64,000 nucleotides of DNA, taken from positions 71,484 to 135,483 of the forward strand of contig JAZONN010000016.1 of NCBI GenBank assembly GCA_045654485.1, in the 5' to 3' direction. Source of the stretch: Candidatus Enterousia sp. GTDB taxonomy: Bacteria; Pseudomonadota; Alphaproteobacteria; Rs-D84. The position numbers and the translations under genes are program-made. Every line of letters begins with the position of its first letter. The first letter of the stretch is position 1. The notes beneath the pieces are model-generated. The model saw nothing but the letters and a program-made list of their open reading frames with translations, was not told the DNA's origin and searched no databases. Below are positions 25,351 through 54,061 of the stretch, in pieces.

Positions 25351-27513
25351 ATGAAGAAACTATTAACGTGTTTTTTCGCAATTATGGTTGTTGCGCCGGC
25401 TGCCGTTGCGGCAGATGGCGGTATTTCACGTGTGATTCCAACGGGATCATCAAATGCGACGACGTCAGACACCAAATCATCTGTGGCCCGTACGACCAAA
25501 ATGGATACAAAAAACGTCGATACGAATACAGTATCCACATCTGTGCGAAATGCTGTATCACGTGTGTTTTCTGGTGCGCCTGCGGTTCCGGCGTATAAAT
25601 CTGCGGATGTTGTTGCACGTTCTGGTGTTGCATCACGTGGTGCGACGGGGCAAACGTCATCTGAAAAATTAAGTGCGGCGGTCAATACGGTTGGTCGTAA
25701 TTCTCGTGTTTCTTCGGCCAGTATTAACAGCGACCCATCCGTTCGTCGTGCGGGTTTGACTTTGCGCCCCAGTACGGCTGAGGTTGGTGGTCGTGCCATT
25801 ATTGGTGACACGGGTGTTCAAACCGGTTCCAATATTGACGAAGCGATACGTGGTCTGAATTTCCGTGCGGCGTCGCGCAATGAAATATCTGCTGAATCTA
25901 TTGCGGCCGCAACCGAAGTGTTGGAACAAACGGCGACATTAAATAAATCGTGCCAGCAACAATATAATGATTGTATGGATCAATTCTGTGCGGTAATTGA
26001 TGCGAACCAAGGTCGTTGTTCGTGTTCGTCAAACTTGTCCCGTTATACCAAGGTTGAAGACGCCGTCAAAGAAGCCAACACCCAATTAAACGAAGTTGCA
26101 CAACGTATTCGTTATGTTGGTTTGTCTGCGGATGAAATCCGTGCTATTATGAACGAGACCGAGGCCGAAGCCGCCTTATCTGGTTCTGTTGATACATCTG
26201 AAACACGTTCTATGTTGGAAGAAATCGAAGAAATGATACGCAATCCCGTATCAACGACGTTCCATTCATCCGATACCGGTTCGACCAGTTTGGATTTGGA
26301 CTTAGATTTCACATCAGAATCTGCGGATTTATTTAATTTGGATTTCTTAAACACCGACGGGGGCAGTTTTTCAAACCTGCGTGGCACAGATTTATACAAT
26401 GCGGCCAAACGTCGTTGCAATAATGTATTAAAAGAATGTAAAGAGGCCGGTGCAACGTCCAACCAAATTACCGGTAATTACGACTTGGCAATTGATAAAG
26501 ATTGTATCGCATATGAACAGGGCTTGGTAAAAATGAATGATACCCTGCGTTCAAATGTGCGCAGTGCGAATTTAATGTTGCAAAAAGCCCGTCTGGCGGT
26601 ATTACAGAATAAAAACCAATACGATGCCAAGGGGTGTATTGCGGCATTGGAAAATTGTATGTTGGACGATATGGTTTGTGGCGATGATTACTTAAAGTGC
26701 GTTGACCCGACCAAGCGTTACATCGACGAAAACGGCAATGTCGTATTGGGGCAAAGAATTGCCGATATTACCGACTTTATGGTGGATTACAATAACGCAA
26801 ATATAAATGCGGAATTCTTGGGTGATGCATACAACATGACATTGGACGTTGACACGTGTAAAGACAGTGGAAAAGACGGTGGAAGTGACGGTTCGTGTGT
26901 CGCGGGATATTTGTTAAAGAAAATTGGTACCAAACAAAACGTCACCGAAGAGGGGTTGTGTCGTGCCGTATTGGACAAATGCCAACGTTATACATACGAT
27001 ACCGATGGTAAATATAAATCATATAACGATATAATTGTACATTATGTGCAACGTGCAATGGTTAATATCCGTGCGTCCCAGCATCAGATTATTTCCGATT
27101 ATGCATCGTCGTGTATGACCGACATTGCCGCATGTTATAATCAACAGGTCACCCAAGTAAACGCTTGGTCAACCAGTGCTAGTGTCAACAGCATCTATAA
27201 CATCATGCGTGGTGCGTGCCGTAATGTTGCATTAACATGTGCCTATGCGGTGTTCTATAAAGATGAAGAATCTTGTAAACAGGGTGATGAAGGTCAGTGT
27301 ATAGAAAGTATTTCTGAAATGTTCTATCAATCGTTGCTGTGTCCGGCAAATTCAACATACGTCAGCAAAAACTCTAACAGCACCGGTGACGTTAATACGC
27401 ATTGTGCGTGTAATGAAGGATATGAAGTTTGGGGAACGTCCTGTGTCGCCGCATGTCTAGGTGACGAAAAACGTAACCTATCAACCGGTGTATGTCAAAA
27501 GACAACAACCTAA
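25351..27513 (+). CDS. Secreted Cys-rich protein (720 aa), paralog of 41829..43937
   Basis: Signal peptide (..APAAVA), S/T/A/R-rich N-region, CQQQYNDCMDQFC...RCSC, C..VL..C, LQKARL, C...I.ACY.QQ. Confidence 0.85.
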   Translation: MKKLLTCFFAIMVVAPAAVAADGGISRVIPTGSSNATTSDTKSSVARTTKMDTKNVDTNTVSTSVRNAVSRVFSGAPAVPAYKSADVVARSGVASRGATGQTSSEKLSAAVNTVGRNSRVSSASINSDPSVRRAGLTLRPSTAEVGGRAIIGDTGVQTGSNIDEAIRGLNFRAASRNEISAESIAAATEVLEQTATLNKSCQQQYNDCMDQFCAVIDANQGRCSCSSNLSRYTKVEDAVKEANTQLNEVAQRIRYVGLSADEIRAIMNETEAEAALSGSVDTSETRSMLEEIEEMIRNPVSTTFHSSDTGSTSLDLDLDFTSESADLFNLDFLNTDGGSFSNLRGTDLYNAAKRRCNNVLKECKEAGATSNQITGNYDLAIDKDCIAYEQGLVKMNDTLRSNVRSANLMLQKARLAVLQNKNQYDAKGCIAALENCMLDDMVCGDDYLKCVDPTKRYIDENGNVVLGQRIADITDFMVDYNNANINAEFLGDAYNMTLDVDTCKDSGKDGGSDGSCVAGYLLKKIGTKQNVTEEGLCRAVLDKCQRYTYDTDGKYKSYNDIIVHYVQRAMVNIRASQHQIISDYASSCMTDIAACYNQQVTQVNAWSTSASVNSIYNIMRGACRNVALTCAYAVFYKDEESCKQGDEGQCIESISEMFYQSLLCPANSTYVSKNSNSTGDVNTHCACNEGYEVWGTSCVAACLGDEKRNLSTGVCQKTTT

Positions 27514-29486: not shown

Positions 29487-30800
29487 TTACAAATTCAACA
29501 AACGATATTTGTTTTCTACACGTGTTTGGATTTCTTGGATTATGTTCATGAAATCGGCCACGGTTGCGTTTTTATTTGTTGAAACAGAATTAAATAATTG
29601 TCCTGATTCTGTTGAAATATCGCCTTCGATACGCACGGCCAGATTTGCCATCCTATTTAATTCCACAAAAGATGCATCGGCAAAATTTGCGGTCTTAGAT
29701 TTTGTGTCCCAATAGAAATTATTTTGCACAGAATCGGCGACTTTATCATATACAACCAACCTTGGTGTCATAGAACCGGAAAATCCAACGGTCACAAACA
29801 TTGCATCAATTCGTCCTGCCGTCATATCCAAAGATTGATTGATGTCTAATATTGCTAAATCGTCTTCGGCTTCGATTGATAATCCCCCCAATGTCAAATT
29901 TGATACCCATAAATTTTCTGCGTTTACCGATACTGTTTTGGCTGTGTCTGCAATTGTTATGGTTCCTGATACGTTAATGTCCTTGGAATCAGATGACATG
30001 CTGCCCGACACGGTTGCGTTGTTGGATGTAAAATTGCTATCGATTGTTGTTCTGTTTTGAAATGTGATGTCACGTACTACGATTTCTTTTGCTGTTATAT
30101 CTTCGGCAAAATCCAATGTGCTAACATTTAAAAATTTAGTGTTAATAATATCGTGGCCACTTAAATTTAGTGCGGTCATCATCTTTGCATCGTCTGGATT
30201 TTTTGTTGGTATACGCCACAGATATAATGCGCTATCACGATTAACGGTTGTTGTTTCGATAATTGCGTTATTTATATCTGTTCCCAAATCAATACTGTCG
30301 GTATGCCAAGCGCCAAAAGAACCGTATGCCCGTGTACCATCAATAAATCCCATTGTTCCCCCAGATAGCCCGACAATCGCACGTGTTCTAAGTGGCGTGA
30401 CATCGTTACCGGTACGCACAACGACGCCTTGTAAACTGGCATTGCCACCGGCGTCGCTTGATTTAACAATGCGCAATTGATACATGTTCTGCATATCTGT
30501 AGTAACGTGTTGTGGTATACCAAAAGGTACAAGGTCGTCAATTTCCACCCGTGTGATATTGCGCCCCACAGGTTTTAATAATGTTTCACGATTGGCAATC
30601 ATATATCTTTCAAGTGCGCCTTGAATTTCGTTCATTTCTTTGGCGATTGCGATATTTTGTGTTCGTTCAATTGCGTTATGCTGATATTTGAAAACAAATG
30701 GAATTACAATGGCCGCCAATGCAACGCTTAACAATAATTCAACCAGCATCCCCCCACGGTTCTGATTTTTATTTCCAAAGATTTTTGTTTTTAATTTCAT
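29487..30800 (-). CDS. PilV-like prepilin/adhesin (3rd of 3)
   Basis: Class III signal NRG|GMLVELLLSVALAAI, then YLWR..., MMTALNLSGHDIIN, as in the R64 PilV N-terminal domain. Confidence 0.65.
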   Translation of the reverse strand: MKLKTKIFGNKNQNRGGMLVELLLSVALAAIVIPFVFKYQHNAIERTQNIAIAKEMNEIQGALERYMIANRETLLKPVGRNITRVEIDDLVPFGIPQHVTTDMQNMYQLRIVKSSDAGGNASLQGVVVRTGNDVTPLRTRAIVGLSGGTMGFIDGTRAYGSFGAWHTDSIDLGTDINNAIIETTTVNRDSALYLWRIPTKNPDDAKMMTALNLSGHDIINTKFLNVSTLDFAEDITAKEIVVRDITFQNRTTIDSNFTSNNATVSGSMSSDSKDINVSGTITIADTAKTVSVNAENLWVSNLTLGGLSIEAEDDLAILDINQSLDMTAGRIDAMFVTVGFSGSMTPRLVVYDKVADSVQNNFYWDTKSKTANFADASFVELNRMANLAVRIEGDISTESGQLFNSVSTNKNATVADFMNIIQEIQTRVENKYRLLNL

Positions 30801-30801
30801 C

Positions 30802-32022
30802 TTAATTTATTGTTGATATTGGTGTTGTTGGTTGTGTTGTACTTTGTTGCCATCCAGATTTTATTAATTCGCCAAACTGTGCTTGATTAATTTTTTGTGG
30901 TATTTTTGCACGTGACAAATTAAATTCTGAAAATGCCGGTGGCTTTGTTGATGGGAAAACCCAATCCCCAATTTTCAATGGCGAAGTTGTCGATACTAAC
31001 AATTCGCCAGAAACGGTTAAGCCAAAGTTTTCATAAAAAATCATTTCATTTGCCGATATGAATGGCGTTAACACCGAATGTGTATTTATGCCTGTGAATC
31101 CGCTTATGGTGCGTGTTGTATCGGATTTTATTACCAAATCATTTGCGACGTTGATTTCTTTGGTAATTGTGGCACGTTCTGTGATGATATTTCCTTGGGT
31201 TGTATGTGTTGTTCCGTTTAAATTGGTTGCATTTATGTTTTTAAATCCCGACATATCACCTATGACACGAATGTTGCTGATGGTTGCATTTGTGCCATCA
31301 ATGTTTGCCCCCGCACCAAAGAACAAGTTTTCAGATGATATATTTGTTGCGTTAATAAATGGTGTTATGATGTTTCGTGCATTTGCCGTATCTGCATCAA
31401 TGGTTGCGACGTTGTATATGTGGTGGCTGGCCATATCTAAATCGCGTTCCATCGTATTCCAATTGTCTTCACCCGATGTCGCCCTGTGCAGGTATTTTGA
31501 CGTATCGTCACCCGATACATTACGTGTCACCCTATAAATTAAATCGCCTGCCATAAAATCTGGTGCGGTAACGGCCCAAGTGTTTCCATATGCCACGCCG
31601 TCTTCACGAACAACTGCGGCATCTCCGCCGATATGGTTTGCGATATTGACGGCCTGCAATTCTTGTTTTGCCACCGGAAAGGCCAAATAGACATCTGTGA
31701 TTGTTGCCCCGTTCACGGCGTATTTATCAATAAATCCGGCCACGGCATCTGTATTAATTTGTACCAAGTCATCTTCAGACATTTGTATTTGTGCGTTGTC
31801 TGGCCATTTGTCTTGGTTCATTCGTACAAAGTTAAGCACATTATCACGTACAGATATTATTTTTTTTGCTGCGGTAACGTCTTTTAATTGTTTGTTTGTG
31901 TTTGATATTTGTGAATACACAAACGGTGTTGCCATGGCAATAATGGCCATCGCCAGCACTACCTCTGTAATACTAGCGCCACGATTTTCATGATTAAAAA
32001 TTCGTGTTTTACATACAGTCAT
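30802..32022 (-). CDS. PilV-like prepilin/adhesin (2nd of 3)
   Basis: NRG|ASITEVVLAMAII, KYLHR..., NTMERDLDMASHHIYN. Confidence 0.65.
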   Translation of the reverse strand: MTVCKTRIFNHENRGASITEVVLAMAIIAMATPFVYSQISNTNKQLKDVTAAKKIISVRDNVLNFVRMNQDKWPDNAQIQMSEDDLVQINTDAVAGFIDKYAVNGATITDVYLAFPVAKQELQAVNIANHIGGDAAVVREDGVAYGNTWAVTAPDFMAGDLIYRVTRNVSGDDTSKYLHRATSGEDNWNTMERDLDMASHHIYNVATIDADTANARNIITPFINATNISSENLFFGAGANIDGTNATISNIRVIGDMSGFKNINATNLNGTTHTTQGNIITERATITKEINVANDLVIKSDTTRTISGFTGINTHSVLTPFISANEMIFYENFGLTVSGELLVSTTSPLKIGDWVFPSTKPPAFSEFNLSRAKIPQKINQAQFGELIKSGWQQSTTQPTTPISTIN

Positions 32023-33364
32023 CTCTTCCCGCCATCAAGCATTGTTTAATATCTATTCTTTTTTCCAATCGTTGCCAGTATACATATTGGCATATCAAAT
32101 ACTGTGACAAAGATTGTTTGTTATATACACCTTCTAATTTTTCTATGATGGATTTGCAATTTACCATTTTGTCATCATCTGCGTCCGGTTTGTCGATGAT
32201 TAAAATTTCGTCATTGTCGATATTGGAAACCAATGCGTCTGGCAACAAAGATGTTCCGGCGGGTCTTATATCTATGATTGTTGCGCCGGATTTTCCATTG
32301 TCTAAACCAACTGATGTTTGGTCACGTAATGTGATGTTTGAAGTATATAGTGTGCCAACCTCTAATCCTGACTTTGCGCTGTATTCCAAGGTTTCGTCAT
32401 CGATATATACATCTTGTCCACGTGTTGCATTTATAAAAGACGAAACGTCCAATCTTTCGACACTAAAATTAATATGGTCGGCGACAACCGCGCCACGTAC
32501 ATTCCAATCGCTTGGGCCGGTAAATGCCGTGTGTCCCGCAACCATAGACATATCGTATGCTGCTGCATTTTTCACGTTTATATTTCCTGAGCCGCCAAAT
32601 TTAGATAATGTTTTTGCGTAGACACCGTTTGTATTTAATGCGCCACGTGTCAATGTTAATGCTGACTCGCCAGATTGACTTTGGAATACGGTTCGTCCGG
32701 CGGTCATATTTTCGATGTTGCTACGTACTTTACGTCCGGCCTCTATACCAATAATGTTCATATTGTTTGCCTCGATACCATCAAAGTTACCACGCACCGC
32801 AAACAGAGTTCCGCCATTATTAATCGAAAAATCCCCCATGTTTAAGTCAGCCAAGAATCCTGCGTTGTCCAAATTTTTTTCATTTCTTCTTACTACGTCT
32901 GAATATATTTCTGCTAATTCAATTCCGACTTTGATTTTTTTATCTTCATGCGTTGCATAGAAGCCAATTCTGCGTGCCAGTTCTGCACGTGTTAATTCGC
33001 TTAATTTTTTATCGGTTAATTCAAGATAAGCCGACACGGAAATTGGCGTTTTGTGAATAATTAATGCGATGTCTTGCCCAAGTGCGGTTTTTGGTATGAA
33101 ACCCAATGGTAATCCGTATGGCTCCAATAGGTCCGAAAAATCATTTCCCGCAACTGTTGTTGTGTCGTATGGGATATTTTGCGCATTTTCTTGGATAAAT
33201 ATACGTGCGGCGGTTTGTGCGACTTCTATCTGATGTGTTGTGCTATACATACGTGCATCGGCACTTTGGTCTGTAATCTGTCGTGCGATAAAAGGCATAA
33301 ATGCAAACACCAGCCCCAATGCCAATAACGCTTGGAATAAAAAGTTTCCACGTGAATTATGCAC
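32009..33364 (-). CDS. PilV-like prepilin/adhesin (1st of 3; Q instead of E at +5)
   Basis: GTG start with AGAGGAG RBS; SRG|NFLFQALLALGLV, LARRIG, FLADLNMGDFSINN; C-terminal Cys cluster. Confidence 0.6.
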   Translation of the reverse strand: MHNSRGNFLFQALLALGLVFAFMPFIARQITDQSADARMYSTTHQIEVAQTAARIFIQENAQNIPYDTTTVAGNDFSDLLEPYGLPLGFIPKTALGQDIALIIHKTPISVSAYLELTDKKLSELTRAELARRIGFYATHEDKKIKVGIELAEIYSDVVRRNEKNLDNAGFLADLNMGDFSINNGGTLFAVRGNFDGIEANNMNIIGIEAGRKVRSNIENMTAGRTVFQSQSGESALTLTRGALNTNGVYAKTLSKFGGSGNINVKNAAAYDMSMVAGHTAFTGPSDWNVRGAVVADHINFSVERLDVSSFINATRGQDVYIDDETLEYSAKSGLEVGTLYTSNITLRDQTSVGLDNGKSGATIIDIRPAGTSLLPDALVSNIDNDEILIIDKPDADDDKMVNCKSIIEKLEGVYNKQSLSQYLICQYVYWQRLEKRIDIKQCLMAGRDDCM

Positions 33365-33535
33365 GAACTCTCCTCTGTATGATATCAGCATAGCAATACA
33401 AAAAAGATATTGCAATCTGTTTTCAGATGTTTTAACATTTGGGTGTGTAAAACATAAAATTATATGGCGGTATCGAACGATTCGGTATGCGTTATGGAAA
33501 GAAATTCCTGATATTTATTAAAATAAAGAACAGAT

Positions 33536-33939: not shown

Positions 33940-35505
33940 ATGAATGGCAACTATACTGTATTGGCACGCAAATATCGCAGCCAAGATTTTAAATCATTAA
34001 TCGGCCAAGATGTTTTGGTCAAAACCTTAACAACTGCAATAAATACATCTCGTATTGCACATGCCTATATTTTTACGGGAATTCGTGGTACCGGTAAAAC
34101 AAGTACGGCCCGTATTTTTGCCAAGGCCTTAAACTGTTTGTCGTCGGATGGTGCGACGGCAAATCCGTGCGGGGTATGTGAAAACTGTCGTGCGATTGCG
34201 GCGGGGCAACACATTGATGTTATGGAAATTGACGCCGCATCACATACGGGCGTTGATAATATGCGTGATATTTTGGATGCTGCACAATATCGCCCAACCA
34301 ATGGTCGTTACAAGGTTTATATCATCGACGAAGTCCATATGCTATCAACATCTGCGTTTAATGCTCTGTTAAAAACATTGGAAGAACCGCCTGCGCATGT
34401 AATCTTTATTTTGGCGACCACCGAAATTCGTAAAGTTCCTGTGACTATTTTATCCCGTTGCCAACGTTTTGATTTGGTGCGTGTTCCCGTCGATACGTTA
34501 AAGCAGCATTTTGCATGGATTGCCGAACAAGAGCAGGTTGAATTAACCGATGGTGCAAATGAATTGTTGGCACGTGCGGCGGACGGTTCTGTTCGTGATG
34601 GTTTGTCTTTGTTGGACCAAGCGATTGCCCAAACCGGTGGTCGTGTTGATGAACCTGCGGTATTGGACATGTTAAAACGTGCTGATCGTGGTGTTGTTGT
34701 TGATTTTATGAAAACGGTTTTGTCGGGTGATACGGCGGCCGCTTTGGATAAAGTGGATGTGATTTATAATAATGGCGCCGATTTATCTATGTTGTTAACA
34801 GATATGATGGAATGGGTGCATTGGGCGACACGTATGCATCCGTCTATTAATGCGGGCGATATCACAAATTCACCATATACAAATGACCAGCGTGAACAAA
34901 TCCAAGATATTAATACACGTGTGTCTTTGAATACTCTTTCCCGTATATGGCAGGTTTTGGTTGCGTCTGTTCCTGAAATGCAGGCGACCGGCAATCAGAA
35001 ACAATGTTTTGATATGCTGATTGTTCGTTGTATGCATATTGCCGATATGCCGTCTGTTCCTGAATTATTAAAGCAACAAGAATCCGCCAATCGTGTGCGT
35101 GATGTAAAAAATATTTTTGCCGATAGAATGGCCACGGCTACACCGGCATCATCACAACCTGCACCCCAATATTTAACCATTACATCTGCGTTGGAATTGG
35201 CGACGGAACTGCAAAAATCCAAAGAGATATTGCTGTATTCATATTATAGTGGTAATATCGAAGTCACGCAATTTGCAGACGGCGAAATTAAATTTTTTGA
35301 TCGCAAAGGCGATGCGGACTTTACCCATAAACTATCAACTTGGTTAATGGATAAAACCGGTCGTGCATGGAAATTGGTACGTGAAATGGAATCTGTACAT
35401 GCTCAAACTGTATCTGAACAAAAGCAAGAAGAATTGGTTGCTGATCCGTTGGTGGCAAGTGCGATGAGTTTGTTTGAAAATGCAGAAATCGTGGGGGTAA
35501 AATAA
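33940..35505 (+). CDS. dnaX: DNA polymerase III subunit gamma/tau
   Basis: YTVLARKYRSQDF, GIRGTGKT, PCGVCENC, EIDAAS, IIDEVHMLS, LKTLEEPP, SRCQRF. Confidence 0.97.
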   Translation: MNGNYTVLARKYRSQDFKSLIGQDVLVKTLTTAINTSRIAHAYIFTGIRGTGKTSTARIFAKALNCLSSDGATANPCGVCENCRAIAAGQHIDVMEIDAASHTGVDNMRDILDAAQYRPTNGRYKVYIIDEVHMLSTSAFNALLKTLEEPPAHVIFILATTEIRKVPVTILSRCQRFDLVRVPVDTLKQHFAWIAEQEQVELTDGANELLARAADGSVRDGLSLLDQAIAQTGGRVDEPAVLDMLKRADRGVVVDFMKTVLSGDTAAALDKVDVIYNNGADLSMLLTDMMEWVHWATRMHPSINAGDITNSPYTNDQREQIQDINTRVSLNTLSRIWQVLVASVPEMQATGNQKQCFDMLIVRCMHIADMPSVPELLKQQESANRVRDVKNIFADRMATATPASSQPAPQYLTITSALELATELQKSKEILLYSYYSGNIEVTQFADGEIKFFDRKGDADFTHKLSTWLMDKTGRAWKLVREMESVHAQTVSEQKQEELVADPLVASAMSLFENAEIVGVK

Positions 35506-35963
35506 TGAAATGTGAATCTGGTCGTTCTTTATTAGAGGTTATTGGTGTTTTGGCGATTGCGGGCCTAATGACGGTTGGTGCGTTTTCTGCATATAAAGTT
35601 ATGCGAACAAATCAAACACGCACAATTGCAAATGCGGATTTAACAAAATTGGTTCAGGATACCAAGATTTTGTTTGAGGCCCGTGGTGGATACGATGGTG
35701 TGTCGGTTGATTATTTAATCAAGGCCGGTGCATTAAAAAACAATGCATCGCCGATTGGTGGTGCTGATTGGTCGGTTGTGGCCAGTGCCGATGGTCACAG
35801 TTTTCAGATAAATTTGGTCGATTTGACGTCTAGTGAATGTGAATATTTTGCATCTACTAAACCACAATGGGCAACGGCTGTTTTGATAAATGGATTTGAA
35901 GTCGGGTTAACAAGCGGTTGTTTTGAATCAAACACGAATCAATTGTCGTTCATAGTCGAATGA
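35505..35963 (+). CDS. Type IV pilin, PilS/type IVb-like
   Basis: ESG|RSLLEVIGVLAIAGLM (E5 present), Y.GV..DYLIKAG.L....PIGG, Cys pair (SSEC..SGC). Confidence 0.8.
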   Translation: MKCESGRSLLEVIGVLAIAGLMTVGAFSAYKVMRTNQTRTIANADLTKLVQDTKILFEARGGYDGVSVDYLIKAGALKNNASPIGGADWSVVASADGHSFQINLVDLTSSECEYFASTKPQWATAVLINGFEVGLTSGCFESNTNQLSFIVE

Positions 35964-41657: not shown

Positions 41658-41828
41658 CGGTATAATCAAAACAATATTTTCCAAAAAACCTGCCACTTTC
41701 GTGCGCTTTATTGTTTACAGGTTGTAAAAAAATTGATATAATTAAACAAAAGCATACGATGTTATGCGGCGTTTTTTGCAACGAAAGGTTGGGTTTCTGG
41801 CACTTTGCCAGAATATACGGAGGGACTT

Positions 41829-43937
41829 ATGAAAAGTCAAAAAGTTACAGAATCATTCAAGAATGCCATGGGTACGGTGTTTTTATTGGCTGGTGCGTTC
41901 TTTGTTTGTTCAACATTATTGTCGATACGTTCGGTTATGGCCGATCCGATTGCGCCAATCGGTTTTGATTCAATGGTTGGTGATGAAAATATGCGTAGCC
42001 CACGTAGTGACCGTGCCAGCCCACGTAACCAATCCACAACCATACGTAAAACAATTGCACGCACGGCGACAAATCCACGTGCGGCGGCATCGGTAAACAC
42101 ACAAAATCGTGTTGCACCAACTCGTAACGTTGTGACACGCACGGCGACAAATCCACGTGCGGCGGCATCGGTAAACACACAAAACCGTGTTGCGCCAACC
42201 CGCAATGTTATTTCACGTGTTGCGGCGGCTCGTGTAAATGCGGCAAGTCCACGTAATGTTCGTGCCCGTGTTGCAGCAATATCGTCGGCCGATGATGCAC
42301 GTGTATCCTTAACTGGTAGTGCCATCAGGGGCAGTAAAAAAAGTTCTACGTCCACATATTCGTATCTAAATACAAAATTATACACCGGTAATTATGCAAA
42401 CATAATTGACACAACCACCGGTTTGATTTCTGCGGATGCGTATAGCAATTGTATGGAATCGTATTACACATGTATGGACGAAATTTGTACAGCACGTAGT
42501 GCGGCCCAACGTCGTTGTGCTTGTGCCGGCCGCGTCAAAGCGTTTGCCGAAGCCGAAGCGGCATTGGAAACCGCCAATGAAGAATTAATCAAAGTTTCCG
42601 GTGAATTAGCATTATTGATTTCAACACAAGGTAAAGATATTTCCGATGCGTTCAAATTGACCGATGCGGAAAAAGTTTTGAACTGTGTTTCATGGCAAGA
42701 AGCAAAAAGCAAATCTGCATCTGAATTACAATCGTGGTGCTTTAATCACGGGTTCTATGACGGCAATGGCAATGGTGCCACAAATTGCGAGCCAGATTAT
42801 TGCAGCACAGATGGGAACAACTTTGGATTTGATGTTAAGACCATAGACGGCAATTCGTCCGATATCCTGGCACAATTGCAATCTTGGGCGGATGCCAAAG
42901 AAAAGACCACAAAAATATTAACTGTTGATGAAGCGGGCCTTTTGGATGCGTTTGCAGGTGTTTCAGATATAGTTGGTAGTTTGGCGGGCATCAGTGGCAC
43001 AATCAATGGTTCAAATTCGGATAACGAAGTAAAAGATACATTGGCCAACACATGGGGTTATGACTTGTTTGAATATGCGCACGACAACGTATGTTCACGT
43101 GTATTGGACTCTTGCTTTAATGGTATTTACGAGGCCTGTGGTTCTCCATCGAATTTTGGTGGCAAATGCGCCAACGGTCAATCGTCTAATTGTCCATTTA
43201 ACTATAATTCCAACGTTGATGTTGATGCGACGGGTAATATTAAATTGAATGAACGTGGTGCGTCGGCGATGACAAATTCAAGTGCGACATGCTTTGGTTA
43301 TACATCCGCCACCGGTGATCCATATAGCTCTTTGCGTGGGCCGGTTGCTGATGCCCGTCGTAGCATCATGAACAAATACTTGTTGGATGCCAATGCAGAT
43401 TGTGACGTATATGGTGATCAATTGAAAACAACCGCACAAAATATTGGCTATCAAAAAGTTGCTGCCCAACAGGCATTGCAACAGAAACGCTTGGAATTCA
43501 AGATGGTTGCCGAAGAAGAGGTTGCGACCGCCGCACGTAATGCGATAAGCAACTATAACGAATGTATCGGTGAAATATTGGATTGCTATGAAAAGCAACA
43601 GCGTACCAATGAAAATTGGTCAAACAGCCGTATAAAATCATATTGTGCACAAATTACAAATGCACCACATTGTTATGAAGAAATGATTTGTACACCAACG
43701 GCAAACAAGATTTATGCGGTTGTTGACAAGAACGATTCCGCACAGTGTAAGAACACAAACGATTACACAACAAATGATTGCCGTAACGTTGTGACATTGA
43801 ATGAAATCTTGCATGGTACTGGTACGGCTGCATCAAAAGATGGGGAAAATTCTGCAGCTTTGCGTGAATACTGTCTGATTAATTCCGGTGCATCAGATGT
43901 TCGTACGTATCTAGAAAATAGTGAAGCATCAGAATAG
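41829..43937 (+). CDS. Secreted/membrane-anchored Cys-rich protein (702 aa from this start), paralog of 25351..27513
   Basis: Hydrophobic N-terminus, Arg/Ala/Thr-rich region with tandem repeat, CMESYYTCMDEIC...RRCAC, CSRVLDSC, LQQKRL, C..EI.DCY..Q; GGAGG RBS. Confidence 0.85.
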   Translation: MKSQKVTESFKNAMGTVFLLAGAFFVCSTLLSIRSVMADPIAPIGFDSMVGDENMRSPRSDRASPRNQSTTIRKTIARTATNPRAAASVNTQNRVAPTRNVVTRTATNPRAAASVNTQNRVAPTRNVISRVAAARVNAASPRNVRARVAAISSADDARVSLTGSAIRGSKKSSTSTYSYLNTKLYTGNYANIIDTTTGLISADAYSNCMESYYTCMDEICTARSAAQRRCACAGRVKAFAEAEAALETANEELIKVSGELALLISTQGKDISDAFKLTDAEKVLNCVSWQEAKSKSASELQSWCFNHGFYDGNGNGATNCEPDYCSTDGNNFGFDVKTIDGNSSDILAQLQSWADAKEKTTKILTVDEAGLLDAFAGVSDIVGSLAGISGTINGSNSDNEVKDTLANTWGYDLFEYAHDNVCSRVLDSCFNGIYEACGSPSNFGGKCANGQSSNCPFNYNSNVDVDATGNIKLNERGASAMTNSSATCFGYTSATGDPYSSLRGPVADARRSIMNKYLLDANADCDVYGDQLKTTAQNIGYQKVAAQQALQQKRLEFKMVAEEEVATAARNAISNYNECIGEILDCYEKQQRTNENWSNSRIKSYCAQITNAPHCYEEMICTPTANKIYAVVDKNDSAQCKNTNDYTTNDCRNVVTLNEILHGTGTAASKDGENSAALREYCLINSGASDVRTYLENSEASE
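42058..42209 (+). repeat. Two-copy 78-bp in-frame tandem repeat (RTATNPRAAASVNTQNRVAPTRNV)
   Basis: Units start at 42058 and 42136; first ~50 bp identical, synonymous differences thereafter. Confidence 0.95.
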
Positions 43938-46788: not shown

Positions 46789-48162
46789 TTATCGACGGAA
46801 CCAACCCCAAATTCCCTTGGCGCCTTTGCCAATTAATCGACCCGTACCAACAATGGTGAATTTTGTTCCCTGTGCTATTTGTCTGCCTGTCCAATCTTTT
46901 GCTTTGTTTAATGTTGGGGAATTCCAGATCTTGTTTACGTCACCACGCATTGCTGTACCAATAGATTCATTTACAGAACCACCGATATCCTTGGCGATTT
47001 CTGCTGCTTTGGATGCAAAATACCAAACCAACAATCCGACTATAAGTGAAATCCAAAAACCTGGGCTTCTCAAACTTATACTTCCTGTATTGGATACTTC
47101 GACAAAAACACTTCCCACCAAAGCGGTACAAAAACCAATTACAATTGATAAAGACACATAATATACCGATGCATTAACCAATCGGTTGATTTGGTCGCTT
47201 AATTTTTCTGGTTTAAATACACTGGTAAACGCATTATATACCCGTCCAGGAATTGCGTCCAAAGATGTCTTGCCGACCGTTTCCGCCAATGCCGTAAAGG
47301 GCAACATTATAATTCCCAAAAATAAATCCAATATCACACCCAATGCTGCAAATGCAAATTTCCATGCAACTGTCATAAACAATACTATTATCGCAAGGCC
47401 GGCACATGTATCAACGATTGCGTTCCATACGCCTTCGCTTTCACCTGCAATCAGTTCCCAACCCGTCGCAATCATTGTATAGCAAAAGCCAGACAGACGG
47501 GTTGGTATGCATAGTAATGTTGCCGCCATATCTGGCTCTAAAATATTATCGGCCGCAGTATTTGTTTGTGCATATTCGTGAATTTTTGAACAGGTGTCGG
47601 GTAAATCAATCCCTATAAAATCCGTGCCGGCATTTAATATTGCGTCTGCCAAGAATGTTCCAATGGATACAATTGGTGCAATTATTATTGAAAACAATTT
47701 GATTGGCCCATAATGTAAAATCATTAACCATATGGCAACAATACCCGCTTTTTTTGCCAATGATGTGACCAGCTTTTTTACATCATTATCGCCTTGCATT
47801 GAATTATAAATTTCGAATCCCATCCAAAATGCAAACATAACCAATATGAATGCAAATATAAATGGCGTTAATGAGTCCTGTAAAGATTTTGCCACGTGTG
47901 ATAAAGCGTTCATAAAGGACAAGCCGACTTTGGCTTCGATTGGAACAAAGTCATTGGTTATTTGTGCGTTATTGCTAAACACCCTGGTATCAGTCATTAT
48001 TGTTTCGTGTACTGTTACCAAATTTTCTGGTGTTGCCCAATTTGTTGCATCAGAAAATTCGGGCAATGTAAACTCTGCGTATGCACTTTTTCCAAATGCA
48101 ACACAACATATAACGATTGCGATTAATATTTTTGATAAAAATTTATACCATATAATTTTCAC
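46789..48162 (-). CDS. VirB6/TrbL-like polytopic membrane protein (paralog 5)
   Basis: Signal peptide, multiple TM helices, periplasmic Cys pair, LFLGIIMLPF core, basic Trp-containing tail. Confidence 0.5.
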   Translation of the reverse strand: MKIIWYKFLSKILIAIVICCVAFGKSAYAEFTLPEFSDATNWATPENLVTVHETIMTDTRVFSNNAQITNDFVPIEAKVGLSFMNALSHVAKSLQDSLTPFIFAFILVMFAFWMGFEIYNSMQGDNDVKKLVTSLAKKAGIVAIWLMILHYGPIKLFSIIIAPIVSIGTFLADAILNAGTDFIGIDLPDTCSKIHEYAQTNTAADNILEPDMAATLLCIPTRLSGFCYTMIATGWELIAGESEGVWNAIVDTCAGLAIIVLFMTVAWKFAFAALGVILDLFLGIIMLPFTALAETVGKTSLDAIPGRVYNAFTSVFKPEKLSDQINRLVNASVYYVSLSIVIGFCTALVGSVFVEVSNTGSISLRSPGFWISLIVGLLVWYFASKAAEIAKDIGGSVNESIGTAMRGDVNKIWNSPTLNKAKDWTGRQIAQGTKFTIVGTGRLIGKGAKGIWGWFRR

Positions 48163-48163
48163 G

Positions 48164-49633
48164 TTATTTTGCTCTCTCTAATGCTTTGCTTTTTATGTTG
48201 CCATACAATTTATTGACATTTTTCAATGCAGATTTACTGTATCCTTTTAACATTGCACCAAAATCCAACCCGTCTTTTTCGTTTGGCTCTGTCTTTGCAT
48301 CTGGTAATAACTGATCTACTTTTGGACTGATTGCAATGATGTATAATATGAATATAAACAGCATAATTGATAAGAAAGACCATCCATCATCCATGAAATC
48401 AAATGCATCCTTATATCTTTCTGGCAATTGGCTGCGTTCTTCATTGAAGCATTCGACATACGTTTGTTCAAAATTATCGCTGTTGTTGGCCTTGTCTTCA
48501 CACTTTTTAAATACGTTCATAATGTATAATGCTTGCTCGTCCATTTCCGCATTTTCGGTTCTAACTAACTTTGGTAATATGCTTGTGAAACCGTCCACAG
48601 GACCGGGGAAGAACATGTCAGCAGAATATGATACTACGCCGAACAAAATAACAACTTTTAATGTGACGGCTAATGTTTTGATTGCGGCACTAACCAGCAT
48701 ATCTATTGATTTGTTTAATAATCCCGATGCTTTTGCCCATATTTTTTCAAATGCCGCCGCCGCCAATAACAGCGGCAAGAATAATATCACAAATATTAAT
48801 TTGAACATAATAGACAGTATTTGAAAGAATATATTGAATCCCAAATATAAAAACATTAATACCAATGCAAGGCCGGCAACCCAAGTCAATACACCACCCC
48901 CAAAATCTAATCCTAAGAATGAATAGTTCATTAATGCTAGTCCGCCTGCCGCCCCCGCCAGCACAACGGTGTTAACATTGGAAACAACGCATAAAAATGG
49001 TTTGAATACGGGGGATAAAATTTCGTTTTCTGTTGAAAATATCTGATTGGCATTATCGCCACTACATGGTGCAATCGCATTATTTCTAGTGGCCATTTCT
49101 CCAAACGCCGCCCCAACATATAAAATCGGTGTTGCGGTAATATTTGTAATGATTTTTAACGATTGTGTTCCACCGCCCCCAATTATCCCCAGTAAAACAC
49201 CAACCACCAAAATACGTGCGCCGTTTTTCCATAATCCATCAAGCCAAGATTTGATTTCAATTTTGCGTTCACCTGAATCAAATTTTGCAGATTTTTGCAT
49301 TGCTTCGAACATAAGTTTAATTGCAGAAATTGCAACATATAAACCGAATCCCAACGCCATAACCAACCATAGTTTTCCAATAATTTTTGTCCAAAAACCT
49401 TCGGCGGTTTTGCTCAAAATATCAAATAAATCTGATATATATGAACACATAAAGCAACCTGCAGGGGTTGCAGCATCGCCTCCGGCCCCAATTGCATCGG
49501 CAAATGTATTTATGTTTATATACGAAATAGATGTCCCGCCAAGTGCTTGCGACATATACCAAACCCCAAGTCCCACCAAGGCAAAGCAGAACAAGAATTT
49601 AAAAAGATTAAAAATAATACTTATTTTTCCCAT
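48164..49633 (-). CDS. VirB6/TrbL-like polytopic membrane protein (paralog 4)
   Basis: CFMC motif, multiple TMs, KLIFVILFLPLLLAAAAF core. Confidence 0.55.
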   Translation of the reverse strand: MGKISIIFNLFKFLFCFALVGLGVWYMSQALGGTSISYININTFADAIGAGGDAATPAGCFMCSYISDLFDILSKTAEGFWTKIIGKLWLVMALGFGLYVAISAIKLMFEAMQKSAKFDSGERKIEIKSWLDGLWKNGARILVVGVLLGIIGGGGTQSLKIITNITATPILYVGAAFGEMATRNNAIAPCSGDNANQIFSTENEILSPVFKPFLCVVSNVNTVVLAGAAGGLALMNYSFLGLDFGGGVLTWVAGLALVLMFLYLGFNIFFQILSIMFKLIFVILFLPLLLAAAAFEKIWAKASGLLNKSIDMLVSAAIKTLAVTLKVVILFGVVSYSADMFFPGPVDGFTSILPKLVRTENAEMDEQALYIMNVFKKCEDKANNSDNFEQTYVECFNEERSQLPERYKDAFDFMDDGWSFLSIMLFIFILYIIAISPKVDQLLPDAKTEPNEKDGLDFGAMLKGYSKSALKNVNKLYGNIKSKALERAK

Positions 49634-49645
49634 TGTTTATTTTTT

Positions 49646-50854
49646 TTATTTTGTTTTTGGTGCGGGTGCGTCTGGTGCCTTGTTTTTGCCCAAAATTACC
49701 TTCCCCGTGTTTTTAACCAAGTTGAATGCGTTGTCGGCCAACTTCATTGCCTCATTACCAAGTTGTTCACTCAATTTGTTTTCTTCTTTGACGTTAAACG
49801 CACCTAAGATCATTTTTGAAATATTTGGTACTTGTTTTTCTAAATATGTTAACACGAACACCAATGCGGTACAGCTCATCAATGTTAAAGATTGTGTGCT
49901 GTTTTCGCTAATATCTTCGGCAAACAGTGCAGACATATCTGTGGCTTGAATCATTTCTGCACCATCTAATTCTGGCATAACCAAGAAACGCATTAGTATA
50001 TTAATAATTATTGTGTATGATAATACCGCAGAACCCATTGCGACAATAGAGTTAATCATATTTGTAATTTGTTTTTTTCCAATATTATTCCCCAATTTAC
50101 CCAGCCACCCCGGCACACTATCTGCACCTTTGAATGGCAACAGTACCAATGATAATGGGAATAAAAATGCAAAGAATGCCATTGCCACAATAAAATCTGC
50201 GAAATAGAAACAGTACTTAATAAACAATTTAACAAATGTCCATGTCAAAGTAAGGCCCACAAGAAACAAAATAAGATGTTTAAACAGTACACCAATCCCT
50301 GTAAACATTTCCCAATCAAACGCCCCGTCGATAACGGCAACCCCCATCAATATAAAATCTTGTAAAACGCTTATTGTTGTTTTCATCACATCAATAACTG
50401 CATCACGTAATTCTGGACGAAAGAAACCGTTATCTGCCATTGCTTCTGGTGTGTAATTAACGGATGCATTAACAGATACGGGATCTGTTCGTGTAATAAT
50501 TTGTGTGTATGCAGATGTCATATATGCAACTGGTTCTGCGGTTATTGTTGTTATCAACCGTGGGAATGTCACCCCAGTTGCCAACAATCCCAATGCAAAT
50601 ATGGAATTTATAAAAACCTTTTGAATTGATTTTGTGTGCCATGGATCTGGGGAATCACTTTTTATGTTATTCCAAACCGCATTAAAGATATAAATTGCCA
50701 AAATGATACAAAAAACAACTGTACAAACTAATGACAGGTATGTATAAGATTTGCCGGCAATATTTGAAATGATTTGAAACAGTTTATCAAATACCGGGCA
50801 TGCCCAACATTGGGTTGCGCTTTCCACCAAAGATTTTGATACGTTATAAATCAT
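49646..50854 (-). CDS. VirB6/TrbL-like polytopic membrane protein (paralog 3)
   Basis: CWAC motif, multiple TMs, FAFLFPLSLVLLPF core. Confidence 0.55.
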   Translation of the reverse strand: MIYNVSKSLVESATQCWACPVFDKLFQIISNIAGKSYTYLSLVCTVVFCIILAIYIFNAVWNNIKSDSPDPWHTKSIQKVFINSIFALGLLATGVTFPRLITTITAEPVAYMTSAYTQIITRTDPVSVNASVNYTPEAMADNGFFRPELRDAVIDVMKTTISVLQDFILMGVAVIDGAFDWEMFTGIGVLFKHLILFLVGLTLTWTFVKLFIKYCFYFADFIVAMAFFAFLFPLSLVLLPFKGADSVPGWLGKLGNNIGKKQITNMINSIVAMGSAVLSYTIIINILMRFLVMPELDGAEMIQATDMSALFAEDISENSTQSLTLMSCTALVFVLTYLEKQVPNISKMILGAFNVKEENKLSEQLGNEAMKLADNAFNLVKNTGKVILGKNKAPDAPAPKTK

Positions 50855-52125
50855 TTCTTTTTAAACCAACCTACTGCGGTTTTGCCAAAGTTCCACAGTC
50901 CCTTGCCACTGTTCAGCATTCCTTTGGCATCGCCTATTACCTGCTTATGCAATGCGTCTTGGCTTGAACCGATATACTTCATTAATTGTTTTTGTGTCAT
51001 CTGGAAAATTTGATACATCAAATATATTGTCAAAATCGCAGATAGCCACGTCACCGAATGTTCGCCAAAACCCATAAATGCCACACCTGGATCCGCATAC
51101 GGTACGTTTGATGATGCGGAACCACGTGCCGCAACCGAGTAAATGCTTTCGTGTCTTTGAAATAATGCTTTTACAACTGCGATATTTATACATAAAATAA
51201 AAGCACATGCAATCATGGTTATAACAAGTGTTTTTAATGCTTTGACTATTCCATCAAACGCCGGCCATAAATCCAACCATTTATCGCTTGACTTGGTCAC
51301 ATATGTTAAAACATAGAATGGGTACAATATTAATTGTAATCCAAAATCAAAAATACCCTGGATAACCAATAGTGCCATAAAAATATTACTGCTAACAAAT
51401 GTGATTACTAAAATGATACCCGTTATTACATTCAAGAAGTCCGCTCCGTCTGCGGCGACAATTGTCATCAAATCACGCAATCCGTTTTTTATCATTCTTA
51501 ATCCACGTGTAATCATTCGATTGTTGGCGGCCGATAGATTTGAAACAGGTTGCGTTAAAAAGTTACATGAATTTTCTGATATCCAACCGGATTCTAATAT
51601 ATTTTCTGGACAGGTTATGGGTGTAAACTCTGTGCCTGCTACATGCATACCTTTTAAAACCTGTGTTGTATAAACGTTTCCCAAACGAAGAAATGGTTCG
51701 GCCAATACTTTTGTTATGATTGTTGGTTGTACGCCCAATAAAACAACGGTTGCGATAAATGCACGCAATGCTGGTTTTAAAATATTTTCTGATATTTTCC
51801 ATCCATCAACGCTGCCATCAACCATTTCGCCACCACCGGAAAAGCCAAAGTTTGCCAACCAGTTTTTTGGTAAATACATTTTGGTTAAATATAATGTGAT
51901 TGATAATCCAAAAAAAAGCCAAATTAATGAGTATATGATACCCGTACCGTTTTGCCCAACAAAGAAATTATAGCTGGCCATTGCGATACTCATCATTGAT
52001 TCCAGTACCAATGGTACAAAAGGTGCCAAATCCAATGCGTCAACAAGCCCTGCGTGTGCGCAGTTTGGCAATATAAATGCCAACAAAACAACCGTCCACA
52101 AAGGTGCTTTTTTTATCTCCAACAT
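50851..52125 (-). CDS. VirB6/TrbL-like polytopic membrane protein (paralog 2)
   Basis: Signal peptide, multiple TMs, Cys pair, LQLILYPFYVLTYV core, tail GWFKKK. Confidence 0.5.
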   Translation of the reverse strand: MLEIKKAPLWTVVLLAFILPNCAHAGLVDALDLAPFVPLVLESMMSIAMASYNFFVGQNGTGIIYSLIWLFFGLSITLYLTKMYLPKNWLANFGFSGGGEMVDGSVDGWKISENILKPALRAFIATVVLLGVQPTIITKVLAEPFLRLGNVYTTQVLKGMHVAGTEFTPITCPENILESGWISENSCNFLTQPVSNLSAANNRMITRGLRMIKNGLRDLMTIVAADGADFLNVITGIILVITFVSSNIFMALLVIQGIFDFGLQLILYPFYVLTYVTKSSDKWLDLWPAFDGIVKALKTLVITMIACAFILCINIAVVKALFQRHESIYSVAARGSASSNVPYADPGVAFMGFGEHSVTWLSAILTIYLMYQIFQMTQKQLMKYIGSSQDALHKQVIGDAKGMLNSGKGLWNFGKTAVGWFKKK

Positions 52126-52190
52126 CCCATTTAATTTTTATTTATGTCAATTATATCACATTTTGCATAAAATATGGTATAATTAAAATC

Positions 52191-53483
52191 ATGAATCGTT
52201 TAAAAAAGTTTTGGATTATATTTTTTCCATTGTTTATTGCCGGTACGGCTAGTGCCGGTATAATTAGTTCGATCTTTACTGGATTTTTAACAACTGCTGC
52301 CATAACAACTGGCGTTTCTTTGTTGCGTACTGCGATTCCATACGATATGCCTGGTGCGTTGGAATTTTTTTCCACCTGTTGGACGTGTCAAATGTTCGCA
52401 GACATAATGGCTATTATGTCAAGTTTTGTGTACAAGATATACATGTCTGTTGGCGAAGTGACGGTTATGATGGTTTTGATGCTGACGGCTATTTGGTTTG
52501 CGTGGAAATTGTTTAGTGGTTTTCTAAATGCAAAAATAGAAGAACCTTGGTCCATAGCGGAAACCTTTACGCATCATTTGTTTAAAATGTTCTGTGTAAT
52601 TTTATTGTTGTTGGCCCCGCTGCCACGTTTGGTGTCAGATATTGCGGTACGGCCAATATTTAATGTTGGTTTGGTTTTAAATCGTGCGGTATCGGATAAT
52701 TCTGATATCCAAAATTGTCTTGTGTCGACGGCTGTGCTGGATACGTCGCTTGATTCCAATGCCGATGCAAGAGAGGCCTTTTCCCCACGTCTTCGTCACG
52801 AAATGGCATGTGAATTATTGGATGTACATAAATTAACGGGTGTGGGTTTGACGTTGGGGTGGACGTTGGCTCAGTTATCATTTGATTATGAACATGCCCA
52901 TAAATTATTATTTGGTGCATTTATGCCGAATTTGCCGCTATTGTTCGCTGGTTTGCTGATGATGGCTGTTTTTGTGATGGCATTAATACCAATTCCAATG
53001 TATTTCTTAGAGATATTTATAAAACTGTCGTTAGATTTGGTAATGTTGCCGTTGATGTTGTTGGCATGGTTGTTCAAAGGTTGGGCAATATCATTAGATG
53101 GTGCCGGTAAAACGATTCGTGGAATAATAGATGACGTTATAAATGGTGCGCTGGGGTTGGGGTTAACCGGTGTATTCATTGGTTTTAGTATGCAAATGTT
53201 AGATAAATTGGTTGATAAATCCACAGATGCGGAATCTTTGATAGAGGTTATTAAAAATAATGATACCGATGCTGTGGTGAATAGTGTGCTGTTAAACGAT
53301 TCGGGTTTTATCTCTATGTTATTGATTGGTACCTTTATTGCGATGTTTATGTCGTCGATTCCTGCGCTGGCCAAGACATTGTTTAACGTTGAAATATCCC
53401 AAGAATTCTATGAAGATGCCAAAAATAATGCGAAAAAAATGTGGGCAAACAGCAAAAAAATGTGGGAATCTTTGAAAAAATAA
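52191..53483 (+). CDS. VirB6/TrbL-like polytopic membrane protein (paralog 1, divergently transcribed)
   Basis: Signal peptide, CWTC motif, LDLVMLPLMLLAWLF core, KKMW heptad tail. Confidence 0.55.
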   Translation: MNRLKKFWIIFFPLFIAGTASAGIISSIFTGFLTTAAITTGVSLLRTAIPYDMPGALEFFSTCWTCQMFADIMAIMSSFVYKIYMSVGEVTVMMVLMLTAIWFAWKLFSGFLNAKIEEPWSIAETFTHHLFKMFCVILLLLAPLPRLVSDIAVRPIFNVGLVLNRAVSDNSDIQNCLVSTAVLDTSLDSNADAREAFSPRLRHEMACELLDVHKLTGVGLTLGWTLAQLSFDYEHAHKLLFGAFMPNLPLLFAGLLMMAVFVMALIPIPMYFLEIFIKLSLDLVMLPLMLLAWLFKGWAISLDGAGKTIRGIIDDVINGALGLGLTGVFIGFSMQMLDKLVDKSTDAESLIEVIKNNDTDAVVNSVLLNDSGFISMLLIGTFIAMFMSSIPALAKTLFNVEISQEFYEDAKNNAKKMWANSKKMWESLKK

Positions 53484-53551: not shown

Positions 53552-54061
53552 ATGACGAAGTTTCCGATTCTTTATTGGCCACGTAAAACAACTGGGGATT
53601 CTGAATACCAGTTGGCACGTAAAGTTATAAATAATTCCACCGGAATGATGCCTGATGTATTCCTTGATGATATGGATATATCGGCATTTTTATCGCAGAA
53701 TCCCAATGCGGTTATATATTATCCGGTGTTTTGTGGCTCTACGGGTTGGTGGGGTGAATTGTTGGGTGGCGATGCGGTCGTTTGTGATAAATTGATAATA
53801 TCATCTGAATGTCAATTGATGGTAATCGAATCGCAGGCAACGGCCAAATGTGATGGTCAAAATCAATTGTTGGCGGCCGAAATCTATCCGGCAAGTGGAT
53901 TTTTCAAGAAAATGAATTCTTCTATTGCAACGGTTGCGGATATGTTGGCGACGAATACTGGTACGGTATTGGCGTTGTTTTCCGGACGCAATACGTCACA
54001 ATTTGTGAATATATTGGAATCCACGGGTAATTCATATTTGGGCTGCATCGGTCGATATTAA
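53552..54061 (+). CDS. Hypothetical protein, 169 aa
   Basis: Open frame with genome-typical codon use; no family recognised. Confidence 0.7.
   Translation: MTKFPILYWPRKTTGDSEYQLARKVINNSTGMMPDVFLDDMDISAFLSQNPNAVIYYPVFCGSTGWWGELLGGDAVVCDKLIISSECQLMVIESQATAKCDGQNQLLAAEIYPASGFFKKMNSSIATVADMLATNTGTVLALFSGRNTSQFVNILESTGNSYLGCIGRY

Follow-up and report, generated by a model that had tools for sequence, protein, structure and literature searches.

A conserved array of five strongly diverged, probably VirB6/TrbL-like membrane protein genes in Candidatus Enterousia

In a stretch of 64,000 nucleotides from Candidatus Enterousia sp. (GenBank assembly GCA_045654485.1, contig JAZONN010000016.1, positions 71,484 to 135,483 of the forward strand; hereafter designated the window), five genes at positions 46789-53483 encode membrane proteins, here called paralogs A to E. 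In type IV secretion systems (T4SSs), the periplasmic stalk has its inner-membrane base in a pentamer of VirB6, a polytopic subunit. We conclude, with an estimated probability of about 0.72, that the five genes are very old and strongly diverged VirB6/TrbL paralogs belonging to a dispersed T4SS, the products of which perhaps assemble into a heteropentamer. Fold, motif and context support a VirB6-like identity well, but the curated thresholds of profile hidden Markov models (HMMs) do not; membership of the VirB6 family rests on the predicted fold of C and D, on a short signature motif and on sub-threshold TrbL matches in 8 of 83 members of the B family. An initial annotation, made from the DNA letters, had described the array as five VirB6/TrbL-like paralogs, and of this description the mutual homology and, for C and D, the resemblance to the fold of TrwI/VirB6 have stood, whereas a match to the corresponding Pfam family, PF04610, was not obtained.

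The genes are arranged in the window as follows.

46789-48162, minus strand: paralog A, 457 amino acids (aa), last gene of the four-gene operon
48164-49633, minus strand: paralog B, 489 aa
49646-50854, minus strand: paralog C, 402 aa
50851-52125, minus strand: paralog D, 424 aa, opening the operon and better conserved than the other four
52077-53483, plus strand: paralog E, 468 aa as an open reading frame (ORF), divergent from D

These coordinates bear out the five ORFs of 402-489 aa and the spacings given in the initial annotation, the distance being 1 nucleotide (nt) between A and B and 12 nt between B and C, with an overlap of 4 nt between C and D. The conserved start of paralog E is M39 at 52191, found in at least 95% of the orthologs, so that the gene spans 52191-53483 (plus strand) and encodes 430 aa.

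The relationship among the five proteins was visible mainly at the level of family profiles. Pairwise BLAST joined only B, C and E. When the family profiles, with two distant orthologs added, were compared by hhalign, E-values of 2e-8 (A-B), 3e-8 (A-D), 1e-8 (A-E), 4e-10 (B-C), 6e-7 (B-E), 6e-15 (C-E, over 334 columns) and 1e-7 (D-E) were obtained, each of these strong pairs being aligned across 250-350 colinear columns. The A-C and C-D pairs gave E-values of about 1e-4 (with a probability of 57% for C-D), and B and D gave no alignment; control comparisons with reversed alignments gave E-values of at least 0.007 in 24 of 25 cases. Moreover, a joint alignment of 145 sequences from the five families contains the invariant columns P155, G223, G254, F261 and P287 (numbering of mature E), which outline a shared transmembrane hairpin of the form G..F..(25 residues)..P. 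Because the hhalign E-values of 1e-7 to 6e-15 stand against those of the reversed controls, and because five columns are invariant throughout, all five proteins are, as judged from their profiles, distant paralogs with real mutual homology, as had been supposed when an all-versus-all comparison was proposed.

The clearest signal for a VirB6 identity came from predicted structures. AF2 models of C (mean predicted local distance difference test score (pLDDT), 70.5; predicted template modelling score (pTM), 0.66) and D (pLDDT, 73.7; pTM, 0.70) were built from separate alignments of two families whose sequence relationship is marginal, and were compared by Foldseek with 350,542 chains of the PDB. 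Chains of TrwI, the VirB6 protein of R388, occupied ranks 1-4 for the C model, with probabilities of 0.87-0.99, and ranks 1-6 for the D model, with probabilities of 0.99-1.00 and template modelling scores (TM-scores) of 0.48-0.55 normalized to the target. The top structures were 7O3V, 8RT9 and 8RTD for both models, and the best match other than VirB6 had a probability of 0.15 for C and 0.60 for D. Thus, both models matched TrwI/VirB6 first, and not an unrelated family.

A short sequence motif points in the same direction. The segment P-x7-F..T..W is described as the only conserved region of VirB6, running from a transmembrane into a cytoplasmic part and holding an essential, invariant Trp residue (PMC2653234), and it is also the sole segment that could be aligned between two bona fide subfamilies of PF04610. 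When B, C, D and the superfamily profile were aligned with VirB6 by hhalign, the best alignment of each was non-significant and fell on this very segment, with P, F and W in register. The corresponding positions in the array are as follows.

48737-48775, minus strand: signature of VirB6 type in B, PLLLAAAAFEKIW (P-x7-F-E..W), which hhalign places on the VirB6 consensus sigPlfi~g~LF~aT..W
50105-50158, minus strand: signature in C, PLSLVLLPFKGADSVPGW, its P, F and W aligned with those of VirB6
51265-51321, minus strand: signature region in D, PFYVLTYVTKSSDKWLDLW
53049-53084, plus strand: signature in E, PLMLLAWLFKGW
47299-47301, minus strand: in A, the Pro (LPF) that is invariant in the common transmembrane core, with no Trp after it

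G..F..P-x7-F-[K/E]..W is the one motif that the five families have in common; its P-x7-F-[K/E]..W part shows conservation of 90% or more in B, C, D and E, and A retains the Pro without the Trp.

Paralog C has 294 relatives in a collection of 5.8 billion proteins, and the 120 relatives listed are all 'hypothetical' or unnamed, none with a Pfam domain. A scan of loci with one genome for each GTDB species yielded 80 loci, the titles of which name Candidatus Enterousia or uncultured metagenome-assembled genomes (MAGs) of Alphaproteobacteria or Rickettsiales, from animal guts including those of ruminants and chickens. The synteny check in related MAGs that had been proposed for the array was thereby carried out, and the arrangement of E divergent from D-C-B-A, with one ortholog per gene, was found in 80 of the 80 species-level loci. 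Two deeper lineages (L083, and L084 with L085), found with the D-family profile, carry a co-directional E-D-C-B-A operon amid housekeeping genes, and hmmscan assigned each of their array genes 1:1 to one of the five families. Because these lineages hold all five genes as one operon in 1:1 correspondence, the five-gene set is, by its distribution, older than the radiation of Enterousia, E having been inverted secondarily. The five array genes evolve much faster than their neighbours: the median ortholog identity is 42-54% for the paralogs (42% for A, with 79 orthologs), against 81% for dnaQ, 85% for SuhB, 80% for PBP1A, 75% for the conserved ORF of 169 aa next to E (orf169) and 67% for UvrD.

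Several results nevertheless weigh against assigning the array to the VirB6 family of a T4SS, and they concern both its gene context and its sequences. As for context, no vir gene adjoins the array in the window, in agreement with the initial annotation; the flanks consist of dnaQ and uvrD on one side and of orf169, suhB and the PBP1A gene on the other. A neighbouring vir gene is likewise missing from all 80 species loci and from the three distant ones (L083-L085). This persistent separation, together with the location among housekeeping genes, would suit proteins that are derived from VirB6 and work independently of a T4SS, as a stand-alone envelope conduit or adhesion platform that would, for example, take up metabolites from a partner cell without VirB4, VirB11 and VirD4. 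The biology of the host could be read likewise, since Candidatus Enterousia (order Rs-D84), with genomes below 1 Mb, no respiratory chain and few transporters, lacks the standard transporters and has been proposed to depend on partner cells and to live off them (PMC12306168); the same paper nowhere mentions secretion, and the word does not occur in it. Against such a conduit, however, stands a coupling protein gene encoded in the same window.

4855-7104, minus strand: VirD4 coupling protein (Pfam T4SS-DNA_transf, 4e-56; TraG-D_C, 8e-20; TrwB_AAD_bind, 8e-18)

This gene lies about 40 kb from the array and is the sole other T4SS gene verified in the window. Moreover, a T4SS lacking VirB6 would be incomplete, and scattered vir islets, described as an 'archipelago', are normal in the related Rickettsiales (PMC2653234). 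We therefore consider a T4SS-independent role unlikely.

As for the sequences, PF04610 (TrbL/VirB6; gathering score, 25.9 bits), against which each protein was to be checked according to the initial annotation, matched none of the five window proteins, nor did any T4SS model of NCBIfam; a Pfam and NCBIfam scan of six window proteins gave nothing relevant. Pfam scans of individual family members gave no TrbL match among 37 members of the C family, 76 of the D family and 102 of the E/A family. In the B family, TrbL was the commonest Pfam family, its eight matches being counted at E-values up to 1, and a distant B ortholog from L084, recognized by the B-family HMM at 1.8e-79, matched PF04610 with an E-value of 4.9e-4 and 20.4 bits over profile positions 74-212 of 215. 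On their own, these sub-threshold matches are weak, because spurious matches to FAM70, a eukaryotic Pfam family, recur in the E/A family (30 of 102 members; best E-value, 3.5e-6) and are almost certainly a compositional or transmembrane artefact. Comparison by hhalign of each family, and of the superfamily alignment of 145 sequences, with alignments of Phaeobacter-plasmid and pTi VirB6 gave non-significant E-values of 0.04-0.8. This negative result carries little weight, because two genuine PF04610 subfamilies used as a positive control (pTi-type and Phaeobacter-type) aligned with each other only at an E-value of 0.004 and over 47 columns. Local HMMs run against VirB6 in both directions gave no signal, and the 59 matches of the D-family profile among 1.84 billion representatives all belonged to the D family and formed no bridge to the other paralogs or to VirB6. 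Searching the PDB by sequence, whether with C itself or with its family profile, returned noise only. The structural matches are themselves modest, with Foldseek E-values of 4e-3 to 2e-2, all above 1e-3, TM-scores of 0.3-0.55 and models of pLDDT 70-74. The array is also an instance in which annotation by standard HMMs overlooks VirB6 homologs almost wholly.

These figures lend some support to a rival view, in which the proteins form a new polytopic membrane family, for instance of channels or transporters, that shares no ancestry with VirB6 and resembles it through convergence in its long hydrophobic helices: neither sequence nor profile comparison links the window proteins significantly to PF04610, the Foldseek scores are as low as just given, and helical membrane proteins readily yield spurious matches, as FAM70 illustrates. 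Convergence, however, would have to account for two independent models that rank VirB6 chains first among 350k with high probability, for a motif match that coincides exactly with the VirB6 signature, and for the TrbL HMM match of the distant B ortholog, which covers most of the domain. The N-out topology and central periplasmic loop predicted for the array proteins would also agree with the VirB6 layout. An unrelated origin thus seems improbable to us.

The proteins also carry a distinctive set of cysteine residues. In three of the paralogs, CxxC motifs occur at the positions given in the initial annotation, with which the translations agree.

50798-50809, minus strand: CxxC of C (CWAC), residues 16-19, just ahead of the long first helix and invariant in 81 sequences
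49445-49456, minus strand: CxxC of B (CFMC), residues 60-63
52377-52388, plus strand: CxxC of E (CWTC), C101/C104

Among about 80 orthologs per family, the CxxC is 100% conserved in B (C60/C63), C (C16/C19) and E (C101/C104). The second Cys pair claimed for four of the paralogs was likewise confirmed, being 99-100% conserved in the central hydrophilic loop of A (C191/C218), B (C190/C215), D (C172/C187) and E (C214/C245, in the numbering of the ORF). B has a third invariant pair, C378/C395; A and D are without the CxxC, and C is without the loop pair. L083 and L084, both distant, show the same combined pattern of CxxC and loop cysteines.

The N-termini bear on where these residues would lie. 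Signal peptides with conserved A-x-A sites occur in A (..KSAYA/EF), D (..CAHA/GL) and E (..GTASA/GI), a slash marking the site, and B has an N-terminal membrane anchor; C, without a signal peptide, begins directly at the CxxC segment. The signal peptides of A, D and E and the anchor of B would place the mature N-terminus in the periplasm. For VirB6 of A. tumefaciens, an N-out topology is reported (Jakubowski 2004, as cited in PMC2653234), and by analogy we infer that the CxxC motifs and the loop Cys pairs would be periplasmic. The invariant Cys pairs of the central hydrophilic loop fit an oxidising compartment.

In L084 (14940-15500) and L085 (6336-6896), the ortholog of A is followed in the same direction by a gene for an exported 186-aa protein with a CPYC motif, which has weak Pfam matches to Thioredoxin_2 and Glutaredoxin (E-values of about 0.04) and may be a periplasmic oxidoreductase tied to the Cys-rich VirB6-like set. 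That the five proteins are themselves membrane thiol-disulfide oxidoreductases or metal transporters of the DsbB, DsbD, CcdA or VKOR type, with a catalytic CxxC, is very improbable: the invariant CxxC of three paralogs, the additional invariant Cys pairs and the thioredoxin-like gene after the array in these two loci would agree with it, but no Pfam or NCBIfam match to the Dsb, CcdA or VKOR families was found, none of these folds appeared among the Foldseek matches, and two of the five paralogs lack the CxxC and are equally conserved. DsbB/DsbD-like and PilC/GspF-like readings were rejected, since neither gave an HMM or fold match.

As diverged VirB6 paralogs, the five proteins would together supply the VirB6 function for a chromosomal, Rickettsiales-like T4SS of the Candidatus Enterousia genome, the VirD4 of which is encoded in the same window. 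The mature N-termini would be exposed to the periplasm by way of a signal peptide (A, D and E), an anchor (B) or a native N-out topology (C). Each protein would enter the inner membrane by its hydrophobic helices and contribute long helices to a five-subunit cone. Because every lineage retains one copy of each gene, and because four of the genes are translationally coupled, this cone would probably be a fixed A:B:C:D:E heteropentamer rather than a homopentamer. In terms of function, a fixed heteropentamer would be the simplest reading. Circumstantial support for a hetero-oligomer is provided by the strict 1:1 five-gene set, the translational coupling and the pentameric state of R388 VirB6. The invariant loop Cys pairs of A, B, D and E would probably form structural periplasmic disulfides, and the CxxC with which the first long helix of B, C and E begins could be a local disulfide staple or a site sensitive to redox state or metal. 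The heteropentamer stoichiometry and the disulfide status are what we purely infer, and they count among the points that tell against the overall proposal.

A bolder version of this scheme would have an obligate heteropentamer with fixed positions, in which the CxxC motifs of B, C and E act in the periplasm as a redox- or metal-sensitive latch controlling whether the stalk channel opens, the set predates the Rs-D84 radiation and arose separately from the rvhB6 expansion, and the T4SS serves to exploit partner cells. We hold this combination to be tentative and, taken as a whole, rather doubtful.

Known systems supply both parallels and differences. In R388, VirB6 forms a pentamer of subunits with seven long helices at the base of the stalk, beneath a VirB5 pentamer (PMC9259494), and it has been suggested that VirB6 recruits pilin and makes up part of the channel (PMC9259494, PMC12857230). 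The array proteins are, like TrwI/VirB6 of R388 (7O3V, 8RT9, 8RTD), all-helical with long hydrophobic helices, and this protein is the best structural match of C and D. A P-x7-F..W signature after a transmembrane hairpin would be common to both, and the number of VirB6 copies per R388 stalk, five, equals the number of Enterousia paralogs (PMC9259494). In contrast to TrwI/VirB6, however, the array proteins have no Pfam match, four of the five have a signal peptide or N-terminal anchor, and they are encoded apart from all other vir genes. They are also 100-190 aa longer than pTi VirB6 (295 aa), and carry the invariant CxxC and loop Cys pairs, whereas CxxC is absent from the pTi and Phaeobacter VirB6 sequences examined, of which the pTi protein contains only one Cys.

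A parallel in gene number is found in the Rickettsiales, which have four to five very divergent VirB6 paralogs (PMC2653234). RvhB6a-e of Rickettsia (four in Anaplasmataceae) are, like the array, four to five tandem VirB6 paralogs with about 80% divergence in a reduced alphaproteobacterial genome, the T4SS of which is dispersed in islets. In both cases the paralogs change rapidly: those of the Rickettsiales are the fastest-evolving parts of the T4SS (PMC2653234), and the Enterousia paralogs show 42-54% identity against 67-85% for their neighbours. RvhB6 proteins, however, are of 674-1154 aa with large flanking domains, against 402-489 aa in Enterousia; BLAST and Pfam both identify them as TrbL/VirB6, and their genes come immediately downstream of virB3-virB4, whereas the Enterousia array escapes Pfam and, detached from virB3/4, is flanked by housekeeping genes. 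The pattern of CxxC and loop cysteines belongs to the Enterousia proteins. VirB6 paralogs of Ehrlichia are reported to interact mutually (Bao 2009, as cited in PMC12857230). In the Dot/Icm type IVB secretion system of Legionella, DotA (VirB6-like) and IcmX (VirB5-like) make up a central pentameric assembly proposed to be part of the translocation channel (PMC12857230); DotA differs in being a single and much larger protein, for which no sequence or fold link to the array was found.

If the VirB6 reading of the array and its heteropentameric form are true, gene duplication has turned a VirB6 homopentamer into a stalk with one each of A, B, C, D and E, and the array offers a natural test of whether an R388-type VirB6 pentamer can comprise five different subunits. 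Five 'hypothetical' genes would become the missing VirB6 part that completes a plausible contact-dependent T4SS for the lineage of Candidatus Enterousia, which is widespread in the gut. Next to the Rickettsiales, the array would be a second example of VirB6 having expanded five-fold in an alphaproteobacterium with a reduced genome. Its strictly conserved pattern of CxxC and probable disulfide cysteines would further provide concrete sites for mutagenesis.

The divergent genes D and E are separated by a short intergenic region.

52126-52190, no strand assigned: D/E divergent spacer, 65 nt, AT-rich, with promoter-like hexamers

The hexamers are arranged as ATCACA-17-TATAAT at 52155-52183, with TG preceding the second, and are only suggestive, because promoter and terminator scans of the locus found such sites to be no commoner than expected by chance. 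A small strain polymorphism is seen in this spacer in the contigs of a single gut-metagenome run, which have TG inserted after 52162 and 2 nt deleted at 52169. As for expression, no clear RNA run was found, and two runs of unspecified type yielded only fragmentary contigs of low depth.

Downstream of E, orf169 (53552-54061, plus strand; 169 aa) begins after 68 nt in the same direction. Its median identity of 75% rises to 94% for the nearest species, it has no Pfam or NCBIfam match, and it is absent from the corresponding position in L084, where the PBP1A gene directly abuts the ortholog of E.

Elsewhere in the window, three large proteins without a Pfam match are encoded at 12783-15977 (1064 aa), 25351-27513 (720 aa) and 41805-43937 (710 aa). 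None of these three, nor three prepilin-like proteins of the window, nor orf169, is a paralog of the array. The 1064-aa and 720-aa proteins have a signal peptide followed by a Ser/Thr-rich N-terminal region, and all three large proteins could be surface proteins or effectors. Prepilin-like N-termini (class III signal) are present in four proteins without a Pfam match, with the sequences NRG/GMLVE, NRG/ASITE, SRG/NFLFQ and ESG/RSLLE; their genes are located at 29487-33415 (minus strand) and 35505-35963 (plus strand), and together they look like a type IV pilin or pseudopilin gene set.

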